A stretch of DNA of 64,000 bases, from NCBI RefSeq assembly GCF_003334815.1, contig NZ_QOWO01000001.1; one strand, written 5' to 3'. Under the pieces are notes generated by a model. The model did no database searches, was not told where the DNA came from, and saw only the letters and a program-made list of their open reading frames with translations. Made by a program: the position numbers and the translations under genes. The stretch is from Escherichia coli (GTDB taxonomy: Bacteria > Pseudomonadota > Gammaproteobacteria > Enterobacterales > Enterobacteriaceae). Shown here in pieces: positions 20,561 through 22,737 of the stretch; position 1 is the first letter of the stretch; every line of letters starts with the position of its first letter.

Positions 20561-20596
20561 AGCCCGCCGTGGTGTTGCGCCACGGCGGGTTTAATG
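20561..20596. terminator. Bidirectional terminator between convergent operons
   Basis: Hairpin cccgccgtgg-tgttgcg-ccacggcggg followed by tttaatg, between two convergent stop codons. Confidence 0.6.
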
Positions 20597-21673
20597 TTGT
20601 CTGTCATACCAATACACCAGGCTCAACGCCACCAGCACAAACGCTATCGGTAAACCGAGCGCGGTAACAGGTGCGCTCAACGCAAATAGCAATCCCAGAT
20701 TGACCATGATTTGATAGCTGATCCAGGTGAGTAAGCCAACGATGACACCTACAGCGAGACGGCTACCCATCCCTGGCGAGCGCGGGGCGCTAAAGGTAAA
20801 CGGCACAGCCAGCAAAATCATCGCCAGGGTCAGGATGGGTTGCCCCAGTTTTTCCCACAGTGCAAGGCGGTATTCGCTGCTGGGTTGCCCGGTTTCCTGC
20901 AAATAATGGATGTAATGATTAAGCTGACGGACAGAAAAAGTATTGCCCGGCATTGATAACTCTTCAAGATCCATACTGGTGAAGGCCGATTGCCAGGCAA
21001 GATTATCTAATGTTTCCAGCGTTTCTTTGCCATTCAGCCATTTTTTATGATTCACACCATGCAGGATCCACGTTTTGTCGTCTTCAATGGTGGCACTGCG
21101 TGCATAAATGTAGGATTCGAGCGAGAGATCGTCGCGATAATGAAAAATCTCCACGCCCACCGGCTGGCCCTGCTCGTTCAGCGATTTCACCGTCACAAAT
21201 TCATTACCACGCCTGGCCCACAGCATATTGCCGGTAATGTCATCGTCCTCCCCCAACGCGGTGGCGGTCGATTTGATTTGCAACGCCTGTTGCTGTAATG
21301 GCGACGCTACCCACTCATCTATCGCGCCTAACGAAACAGTCCACAATATCCCTGCAACCAGCGCCACCAGTGCAATACGGAAGATAGAAAACCCCATGCT
21401 GCGAATGGCGGTAAGCTCACTGTTTTTCGATAACTGCCCCAGGCCGACAATCCCTCCCAATAAGGCGATAAATGGCGAAAGTTCGACCAGTGTGCGCGGT
21501 AAGGTCATTAGCACCACCAGCACCGCCTGAGTCCAGCGATAACCGCCCGGGCTGACATCATCCAGTTCGTTAATCAGGTTGAAGGTGGTAAAAAGCGGCA
21601 GCAATAGCCCTGCGGCGGCGGCAAAACCGAGAAAGAGATGACGGATTAAATAGCGGCTGAAAACATTCATCGG
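20591..21673 (-). CDS. LptG-like permease (YjgP/YjgQ family)
   Basis: Start set at MNVFSRYLIRHL; six predicted TM segments with a large periplasmic domain between TM3 and TM4. The ORF track over-extends to 21751. Confidence 0.7.
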   Translation of the reverse strand, partial: PMNVFSRYLIRHLFLGFAAAAGLLLPLFTTFNLINELDDVSPGGYRWTQAVLVVLMTLPRTLVELSPFIALLGGIVGLGQLSKNSELTAIRSMGFSIFRIALVALVAGILWTVSLGAIDEWVASPLQQQALQIKSTATALGEDDDITGNMLWARRGNEFVTVKSLNEQGQPVGVEIFHYRDDLSLESYIYARSATIEDDKTWILHGVNHKKWLNGKETLETLDNLAWQSAFTSMDLEELSMPGNTFSVRQLNHYIHYLQETGQPSSEYRLALWEKLGQPILTLAMILLAVPFTFSAPRSPGMGSRLAVGVIVGLLTWISYQIMVNLGLLFALSAPVTALGLPIAFVLVALSLVYWYDRQH

Positions 21674-22737
21674 GAAAATTTCTGCAGCAAAGAGAAGTCG
21701 CGTGCGACCAGCATCAGCAGGCCCATTAGCATGAGTCCGGGTACTAACCACAAACCAGGAATGAGGGGAATCGCGCCGTTAGCCACCAGCGTACGGCAGA
21801 CGTCACCGCCATAAAAAATGGCAATAAACAGCAACGTCAGTGGCAATAACGTTGAAAATCGCCCTTGCCGCGGTTTTACCCGACTTAATGAAATGGCCAG
21901 CAGCGCCATCAACAATGCGGTCAGGCCACGGCTTTGCCGCCATTGCAGTTCGGCATGATCGGCTGGAAAGACGGAGCGCGCCAGCTCCGTGACCGATTTC
22001 GCTTTGCGTTTGACGTTAGGGCTTTGATCCAGCGGATTCAGATGTAATTGCAGATTACGGTAGATCTGTTCGTTGTCATCACGCCCCTGATGATCGATAA
22101 GATAGGCAGTGCCGTTGTGCAACATAACGGTCGGTTTCTCGGGTGATGGGTCAACCACATCAACCGAACGGGCGCGGAAAATGCGGGTTCGATTGGCAGT
22201 AGAAGTATAAATCAGCGCGTCAGTCAGGCGATTATTATCCTGATCAACCGTCTGCGAAAGGATCATTCGTCCGTTATCGTTAGTGTTAAATTTCTTTGCC
22301 CGCAACTGGCGAACATCCAGCTCCGACTGCGACTGCTGCTCCAGTTGATAAATCTGCGCATAAGCCCACGGACGACCATACATCGACAGAAGGGTGACAA
22401 AAATACTTAGCGGTATCGCCAGATAAAGAACGGCTTTGTACAAGCGTCCCGGACTGCCCCCCGCCGCAGAGATAGCGGTAATTTCCGAGTCGGTATACAT
22501 CTGCCCTAGCGTCACGCCAACTGACACATACAGACCAACAGGTAACAACATCTCCAGTGCAATCAGTACTTTGTAGAAAACGATATCCAGCACAACATCA
22601 AGAGCTAATGTCCCATTTGCCGCTTCGGTCAGATAACGCTGTGCGGAGTAGCTGGCGAAAATAAAGATCAGAAAACCGACGATAATCAGCACCAGACGGC
22701 GCGTACCACGCATGATGTAGTGTTCAACCAGCTTCAT
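21667..22737 (-). CDS. LptF-like permease (YjgP/YjgQ family)
   Basis: 356 aa; LGQMYTDSEITAISAAGGS resembles the LptF motif LGKLYTESEITVMHACGLS; same topology. Confidence 0.75.
   Translation of the reverse strand: MKLVEHYIMRGTRRLVLIIVGFLIFIFASYSAQRYLTEAANGTLALDVVLDIVFYKVLIALEMLLPVGLYVSVGVTLGQMYTDSEITAISAAGGSPGRLYKAVLYLAIPLSIFVTLLSMYGRPWAYAQIYQLEQQSQSELDVRQLRAKKFNTNDNGRMILSQTVDQDNNRLTDALIYTSTANRTRIFRARSVDVVDPSPEKPTVMLHNGTAYLIDHQGRDDNEQIYRNLQLHLNPLDQSPNVKRKAKSVTELARSVFPADHAELQWRQSRGLTALLMALLAISLSRVKPRQGRFSTLLPLTLLFIAIFYGGDVCRTLVANGAIPLIPGLWLVPGLMLMGLLMLVARDFSLLQKFSR

Follow-up and report, generated by a model that had tools for sequence, protein, structure and literature searches.

A second LptF/LptG-type permease pair inside a sphingolipid-synthesis locus of Escherichia coli is a likely LptB-dependent sphingolipid extractor

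A 64,000-nucleotide stretch of the Escherichia coli chromosome (contig NZ_QOWO01000001.1 of RefSeq assembly GCF_003334815.1; here called the window), which includes the region from glcC-yghO to yghQRST-pitB, carries a second pair of genes for permeases of the LptF/LptG type, referred to here as lptF2 and lptG2. LptF2 and LptG2 are likely to form the transmembrane half of an Lpt-type ATP-binding cassette (ABC) extractor, which would act on the sphingolipid made by the neighboring genes and use the LptB ATPase of the cell. A first-pass annotation of the window had suggested a dedicated exporter for the product of the locus, and this suggestion is supported by the co-inheritance of the pair with spt, acpR, aasR, cerR, and yghO, by selection, by a coupling motif, and by the absence of a local ABC ATPase, to which the analysis adds gene integrity and family membership.

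The first-pass annotation had placed the pair at positions 20591 to 22737, and two adjacent minus-strand open reading frames (ORFs) fill exactly that span. Inspection of the ORFs in the window showed that both genes are intact and translationally coupled. Translation of lptG2 starts at the ATG at 21670; this codon and the TGA stop codon of lptF2 overlap as ATGA (21667-21670), and the resulting protein has 359 amino acids (aa). The core lptF and lptG genes of strain K-12 likewise overlap, by 1 nucleotide (nt). The mechanically called ORF for lptG2 (20591-21751, GTG start, 386 aa) was rejected as overextended. Membership in the LptF/LptG permease family was tested with Pfam PF03739 and with NCBIfam TIGR04407 and TIGR04408. 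LptF2 scored 318 bits against TIGR04407 (LptF; curated cutoff, 230) over residues 4 to 345 of its 356, and LptG2 scored 308 bits against TIGR04408 (LptG; curated cutoff, 240). Both profiles are covered from end to end (positions 2 to 346 of 347 for LptF and 2 to 350 of 351 for LptG). Moreover, LptF2 gave full-length collinear matches to the solved LptF chains (residues 4 to 353; E values of 4e-32 to 1e-20), with the solved core LptF chains scoring just 77 to 115 bits. Hydropathy analysis revealed in both proteins three plus three transmembrane segments flanking a hydrophilic region of ~150 aa, as in core LptF and LptG; in this family, the region between the two sets of segments is a large periplasmic domain.

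The location of the pair inside a lipid-synthesis locus was borne out. The pair is adjoined by genes for serine palmitoyltransferase (SPT), acyl carrier protein (ACP), a reductase of the short-chain dehydrogenase/reductase (SDR) family, and fatty acyl-AMP ligase (FAAL), and by yghO. The FAAL gene, aasR, matches NF006624 with 878 bits, and spt matches the serine palmitoyltransferase family NF047599 with 599 bits, while acpR and the cerR-like gene match ACP and SDR/epimerase-family profiles, respectively. No Pfam match was obtained for yghO; its Caulobacter orthologue, CC_1154, encodes an N-acyltransferase required for dihydroceramide synthesis in that organism (PMC9386255). The locus thus has the full set of five genes to which bacterial dihydroceramide synthesis has been assigned, namely, aasR, cerR/epi, acpR, spt, and aca (ceramide synthase), with ECD_02850 to ECD_02854 as the orthologues in BL21(DE3); biochemical tests were reported for SPT, AcpR, and AasR of BL21 (orthologues ECD_02851 to ECD_02854) (PMC9386255).

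The check proposed in the first-pass annotation was whether the helices that couple the permeases to LptB are conserved. They are: the motif is intact, and its Glu and Gly are invariant. The published coupling-helix motif (hydrophobic----E-hydrophobic-x-2 hydrophobic---G) lies between transmembrane segments TM2 and TM3 and docks into LptB; the strictly conserved Glu (E84 in LptF, E88 in LptG) and the terminal Gly are, like the other core positions named below, among those that matter for LptB binding and function (PMC5082905). The coupling helix of LptF2, YTDSEITAISAAG, matches this motif, with invariant Ser-Glu and Gly columns and with Y80 and A90 of core LptF kept. The coupling helix of LptG2, LSKNSELTAIRSMG, keeps L83, E88, L89, and G96 of core LptG. 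Most of the functionally sensitive positions are retained, and even the distant homologues linked to spt have the Glu and the Gly without exception. As far as these helices predict, the two permeases are suited to docking with an ATPase of the LptB type.

The statement that no ABC ATPase gene is nearby holds for the whole 64 kb, in which no ORF has a Walker A motif together with an ABC signature. In a collinear annotated genome, no ABC ATPase is listed across the window, the only ABC component being the substrate-binding protein ygiS. The sole ORFs of the window with a Walker A motif are yghR, yghS, and yghT. A self-contained transporter, in which these P-loop proteins of the operon serve as divergent ATPase subunits, would draw on this fact, on their presence in the same operon and synteny block as the pair, on their size (230 to 252 aa), which is close to that of LptB, and on a marginal match, confined to the Walker A motif, to the ABC-F protein YheS in a sequence search of the PDB. 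This is, however, in contrast with the alignment of the three paralogues (36 to 41% identical), in which the ABC signature motif (LSGGQ) is missing and the invariant motifs are GxDGxGKST, DRYPQ, and RKPDH. It is also in contrast with the AlphaFold2 (AF2) model of YghS (predicted local distance difference test [pLDDT] score, 79), for which the Foldseek matches are thymidylate, deoxynucleoside, and adenylate kinases (E value of ~1e-6; template modeling [TM] score of ~0.55) and for which no ABC ATPase domain was found among the 50 matches listed. Moreover, the three proteins are missing from distant loci that retain LptF2 and LptG2. The motifs and the kinase fold rule out YghR, YghS, and YghT as hidden ABC ATPases, and a self-contained transporter is extremely improbable.

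On the basis of the modeled fold, YghR, YghS, and YghT are better regarded as candidate head-group or lipid kinases, and their RefSeq label "dTMP kinase" is doubtful. They were also considered as homologues of the Caulobacter kinase CpgB, which was ruled out, CpgB being a kinase of the DAGK/LCB5 type. The three genes are co-inherited with the enteric sphingolipid block; the distant sphingolipid loci, from which they are absent, have DAGK-type kinases instead.

A permease pair that has no ATPase of its own and borrows LptB has already been published: LptF2 and LptG2 were proposed between 2021 and 2024, and the functional data concern the pair of Caulobacter. Second copies of LptC, LptF, and LptG were recognized by Olea-Ozuna and colleagues in the sphingolipid region of Caulobacter, and these authors suggested that the copies transport phosphosphingolipid to the outer membrane (PMC11324152). 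A preprint by Uchendu, Isom, and Klein followed in April 2026. It reports that deletion of Caulobacter lptF2, lptG2, and lptC2 requires the inactivation of spt or cpgB, the pair becoming essential when the anionic sphingolipid is made, and that LptF2 and LptG2 copurify with each other and with the only LptB of the cell (bioRxiv 10.64898/2026.04.12.717747). The complex of the two permeases, the binding of LptB, and the lethality of the deletion solely when anionic sphingolipid is made are thus properties of the Caulobacter system. According to the same preprint, lptF2 and lptG2 occur in many sphingolipid loci of alpha- and gammaproteobacteria, whereas lptC2 is seemingly restricted to Caulobacter, and Figure 2B of that work depicts a locus with homologous genes in E. 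coli UTI89 (bioRxiv 10.64898/2026.04.12.717747).

The E. coli pair resembles LptF2/LptG2 of Caulobacter crescentus (CCNA_01214/CCNA_01213, i.e., CC_1156/CC_1155) in being an F-then-G pair inside a locus with spt, acpR, aasR, cerR, and ceramide synthase genes, in the lack of lptB or any other ABC ATPase gene in that locus, in the flippase candidate encoded nearby, and in being closer to spt-linked LptF/LptG proteins than to the core ones. It differs in that E. coli has no LptC2 gene. Furthermore, Caulobacter makes ceramide diphosphoglycerate with the DAGK-type kinase CpgB and with CpgA, CpgC, and CpgD, whereas the E. coli locus has YghR, YghS, YghT, a 274-aa protein, and a paralogue of YtfJ.

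The first-pass annotation had also described the pair as paralogous. This stands insofar as it is a second pair of the LptF/LptG type; the comparisons indicate, however, that it did not arise by recent duplication of the core genes and is part of an old LptF2/LptG2 lineage, which is separate from them and is co-inherited with the ceramide genes. This assignment follows from the low identity to the core pair, from scores that favor spt-linked relatives, and from the linkage to spt. LptF2 is 29% identical to K-12 core LptF, and LptG2 is 28% identical to K-12 core LptG over 350 aa. The 13-gene block from yghO to yghT is syntenic in Escherichia species and Pseudocitrobacter and is rearranged yet linked in Mangrovibacter, and LptF2 orthologues with 64 to 79% identity were found in Citrobacter, Hafnia, Shimwellia, Sodalis, Serratia, Erwinia, and Raoultella. 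The next relatives of LptF2, sought exhaustively among 1.84 billion cluster representatives, have 34 to 38% identity and scores of 197 to 226 bits. In the nearest nonenteric clade, a FAAL-SDR-ACP-aminotransferase (class I/II) cluster lies within 10 kb of the gene in all five long contigs; the contigs of P0127, P0129, P0166, and P0204 are too short to inform on context.

Two of the distant loci, compared by tblastn, share with the E. coli genes 50 to 53% identity for spt, 45 to 47% for aasR, and 47 to 48% for yghO. In reciprocal tblastn searches, the LptF proteins of distant spt loci scored 155 to 171 bits against LptF2 and 39 to 79 against core LptF, and the LptG proteins scored 140 to 177 bits against LptG2 and 91 to 108 against core LptG. 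The LptG encoded on a 7-kb contig without spt genes (L020, from P0261), which serves as a non-spt comparison pair, scores closer to core LptG. The distant pairs of uncultured delta- and gammaproteobacteria (L017, L018, and L021 to L023), whose LptF proteins are 34 to 38% identical to E. coli LptF2 and thereby closer to it than core LptF is, are linked to FAAL-SDR-ACP-Spt genes and to a yghO-like gene, and L018 also has a yghQ-like flippase gene. Unlike the enteric locus, these loci have DAGK_cat, CDP-OH_P_transf, NTP_transferase, and Metallophos genes, often with an MsbA-like fused ABC gene, and they are devoid of YghR/S/T, YtfJ, and the 274-aa protein. A profile search with 30 members of the distant LptF2 clade retrieved mostly unnamed metagenome proteins (Desulfobacterales, Syntrophobacterales, and metagenome-assembled genomes of Gammaproteobacteria), with no Caulobacter entry. 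A scan of genome contigs seeded with a single LptF2 retrieved only close enteric relatives and one probable contaminant, again with no Caulobacter. The contaminant is a low-coverage contig of 241 bp in a Falsirhodobacter assembly (L012; NZ_JAQMHV010000051.1), which is 99% identical to E. coli lptF2 at the protein level and probably represents E. coli contamination of that assembly.

With the core E. coli LptB2FGC system (b4261 and b4262; PDB 6MHU and 6S8H) the pair shares the family, the architecture, the coupled order of F and G, and the Glu and Gly of the coupling helix. Both pairs score above the TIGR04407 and TIGR04408 equivalog cutoffs and for this reason bear the name "LPS export ABC transporter permease LptF/LptG" in RefSeq (Prokaryotic Genome Annotation Pipeline; e.g., NZ_CP060083.1); for lptF2-lptG2, this looks like an overspecific annotation. 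The names imply that the pair is a redundant or backup exporter of lipopolysaccharide (LPS), a reading with which scores above the curated cutoffs and coupling helices compatible with LptB agree. The low identity to the core pair (28 to 29%) speaks against it, as does the genomic setting, since the pair is always linked to spt genes and lies in a sphingolipid-synthesis context, not in that of pepA-lptFG. So does its distribution: the core lptF-lptG genes, located elsewhere, are present in all 5426 complete E. coli genomes, whereas lptF2-lptG2 is accessory, being present in 4132 of the 5426 (~76%; at least 80% covered in 4106) and absent from ~24%, including K-12.

The residues that contact LPS, taken from the Shigella/E. 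coli structure (PMC6744409), provide further evidence on the cargo. R33 and K317 (as R) of LptF and K62 (as R) and R136 (as K) of LptG remain basic. In contrast, K34, K40, K41, R133, and D37 of LptG are replaced in LptG2 by N, D, D, L, and N, respectively, and K322, R263, and Q248 of LptF are replaced in LptF2 by N, H, and A. In the LptG2 proteins of the distant spt loci, position 34 is occupied by Glu or Asp, and the K34E substitution is lethal in core LptG (PMC6744409). Because contacts of LptG with the lipid A phosphates and core are replaced, and because position 34 is acidic in the distant relatives, redundancy for LPS appears disfavored. Taken alone, this argument is weak, since variation at K34, K40, and K41 is seen likewise in the L020 pair, in which LptG scores closer to core LptG. 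The E. coli pair thus lacks several of the basic residues that bind the lipid A phosphates and inner core, and it lacks the universal, essential, single-copy status of the canonical LPS exporter, and a backup role in LPS export is quite unlikely.

The genes are under strong purifying selection and are not degenerate. The ratio of nonsynonymous to synonymous substitution rates (dN/dS), calculated against the orthologues of Escherichia whittamii, another Escherichia species, Pseudocitrobacter, and Mangrovibacter, is 0.05 to 0.11 for lptF2 and 0.04 to 0.10 for lptG2, in the same range as for spt (0.03 to 0.06). Both genes are full length, with no internal stop codons, and relatives down to 64 to 67% identity retain the start codons and the ATGA overlap. 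These observations bear on the proposal that the pair is what is left of a horizontally acquired island, unexpressed and in decay. Such a remnant would fit the accessory status of the pair in E. coli, the truncated or fused gene calls among some of its database entries, the failure to find any expression data for it, and its loss in K-12. In K-12 MG1655 (L024, 3130146-3131340, corresponding to positions ~16100 to 24450 of the window), the insertion sequence IS5 (insH9) stands between yghO and a truncated yghQ, and aasR, cerR, acpR, spt, lptG2, lptF2, the YtfJ paralogue, the 274-aa gene, and part of yghQ are gone. This loss is an IS5-associated deletion, and the standard laboratory strain K-12 is without the system because IS5 stands in place of the locus genes; BL21(DE3) has the locus. 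However, the low dN/dS values, comparable with those of spt, and the full-length, coupled ORFs, intact in the 4106 genomes, are at odds with decay, and a remnant is very improbable.

The minus-strand genes around the pair form a compact operon, with gaps of −4 to 45 nt, in which yghS and yghR come first, followed by yghQ, the 274-aa gene, the YtfJ-family gene, lptF2, and, as the last gene, lptG2. Coordinates are collected in Table 1.

Table 1. Positions of the permease pair, its coupling helices, and the surrounding features in the window
Feature	Position	Strand	Description
yghO	14953..16095	-	Orthologue of Caulobacter N-acyltransferase CC_1154 (PMC9386255)
aasR, cerR-like SDR, acpR, spt operon	16505..20556	+	Convergent with lptG2; RefSeq annotation and profile matches
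Hairpin	20559..20593	.	16-bp stem, 10 G-C pairs; 34-nt gap between the convergent spt and lptG2 stops, overlapping the lptG2 stop
lptG2, LptG-type permease	20591..21670	-	359 aa; TIGR04408, 308 bits; RefSeq gene model
LptG2 coupling helix LSKNSELTAIRSMG	21392..21433	-	Residues 80-93, Glu85; aligns to LptG L83-G96
lptF2, LptF-type permease	21667..22737	-	356 aa; TIGR04407, 318 bits
LptF2 coupling helix YTDSEITAISAAG	22459..22497	-	Residues 81-93, Glu85; aligns to LptF Y80-G92
YtfJ-family protein	22768..23331	-	TIGR01626, 212 bits; 30 nt upstream of lptF2, same operon
Conserved hypothetical protein, 274 aa	23340..24164	-	Cytoplasmic, all-helical; between yghQ and the YtfJ paralogue; syntenic
yghQ, MOP/Wzx-like flippase candidate	24164..25513	-	449 aa; weak MOP flippase match
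yghR	25559-26317	-	P-loop, nucleotide-kinase fold
yghS	26349-27062	-	P-loop, nucleotide-kinase fold; with yghR first in the operon ending in lptG2
yghT	27236..27928	+	Third paralogue, divergently transcribed

YghQ is, from sequence similarity, a candidate sphingolipid flippase; it is 31% identical to the product of a Polysacc_synt gene in the distant sphingolipid locus L018, whereas in other distant loci the MsbA-like fused ABC gene takes the place of such a gene. The 274-aa protein was found only in enteric loci among the loci examined. It gave no Pfam or NCBIfam match, and its AF2 model (pLDDT, 67) is all-helical, with no Foldseek match in the PDB below an E value of 0.25. The YtfJ paralogue has hydrophobic residues at positions 1 to 19, which resemble a signal sequence, and it is syntenic in all enteric loci examined; a sequence search of the PDB gave no match for it. 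It could work alongside the exporter in the periplasm. In a few database entries, the gene call joins the YtfJ paralogue and LptF2 into one protein (553 aa, PF09695 plus PF03739). The hairpin in the gap between the convergent operons, identified in a consensus scan, is probably a bidirectional terminator.

These components may be arranged into a pathway; for E. coli, all of its steps are inferred, as are the nature of the lipid and its path beyond the inner membrane. Ceramide synthesis would take place on the cytoplasmic side of the inner membrane, and a head group would probably be added by enteric-specific enzymes, for which the kinase-fold proteins YghR, YghS, and YghT and the 274-aa protein are candidates. 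The lipid would then be flipped across the inner membrane, possibly by YghQ. LptF2 and LptG2 would form a heterodimer, and their coupling helices would dock into the single LptB dimer of the cell, which is encoded outside the window. From there the lipid would most likely cross the shared LptC/LptA/LptDE bridge to the outer membrane.

The last of these steps has an alternative, in which LptF2 and LptG2 extract the lipid and a dedicated periplasmic carrier, the secreted YtfJ-family protein, takes the place of the shared bridge. The signal-like N terminus of the YtfJ paralogue, its gene position immediately upstream of lptF2, and its conservation in all the enteric loci are consistent with such a carrier. 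So are the absence from the locus of lptC2 and of any duplicate of lptA or lptDE, and the statement in the preprint that, with lptC2 seemingly restricted to Caulobacter, the downstream route is unknown (bioRxiv 10.64898/2026.04.12.717747). However, YtfJ homologues are missing from the distant loci that have LptF2 and LptG2, the PDB sequence search was empty, and lipid binding is without support for this family. Moreover, Sphingomonas retains the full Lpt bridge without making LPS (bioRxiv 10.64898/2026.04.12.717747), which favors the shared bridge. A dedicated YtfJ-type carrier is therefore unlikely. With somewhat more weight, but still only tentatively, we entertain an enteric variant of the extractor, in which the cargo is an E. 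coli sphingolipid not described so far and different from ceramide diphosphoglycerate, YghR, YghS, and YghT together with the 274-aa protein make its head group, LptF2-LptG2 competes with LptFG for LptB, and the lipid is handed over to the YtfJ paralogue instead of, or before, the bridge.

Several observations weigh against the assignment of LptF2 and LptG2 as the LptB-dependent extractor of a sphingolipid. The literature search retrieved no account of E. coli making a sphingolipid natively, the available data being those on overexpression of the BL21 enzymes. The Caulobacter-type head-group genes (for the DAGK-type CpgB, a CDP-OH transferase, and a nucleotidyltransferase) are absent from the E. 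coli locus; because the enteric block has other genes in their place, the E. coli lipid is probably not ceramide diphosphoglycerate. The replacement of several contacts of LptG with the lipid A phosphates implies that the cargo, if it is a sphingolipid, must be recognized in a different manner. The orthology to CCNA_01213 and CCNA_01214 would rest on the figure in the preprint and on the distant spt-linked clade. Finally, the scan for promoters and terminators in the window gave match counts not above those of shuffled sequence, with the hairpin between spt and lptG2 as its sole standout.

LptB2FGC is an antibiotic target, which in E. coli is viewed as a machine for a single substrate, LPS. 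If the enteric variant holds, most natural E. coli strains, unlike K-12, have a second outer membrane lipid, and their LPS motor serves two clients. Should LptB be shared with a second, sphingolipid-exporting pair in about three-quarters of natural strains, the envelope biology derived from K-12 would be incomplete, and compounds that inhibit LptB or the bridge could have an additional action in clinical strains. The automatic label "LPS export permease LptF/LptG" would then be misleading for lptF2-lptG2.

The window as a whole is collinear with strain G1/2, the gene order running from sslE to ygiW by way of glc, yghO, pitB, gss, and hyb. Positions 1 to 2875 gave no blastn match above the cutoff to the sslE end of G1/2, and the remaining window is >99.9% identical to that strain. 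Positions 14000 to 27000, which include the permease pair, are 100% identical to many complete E. coli genomes.

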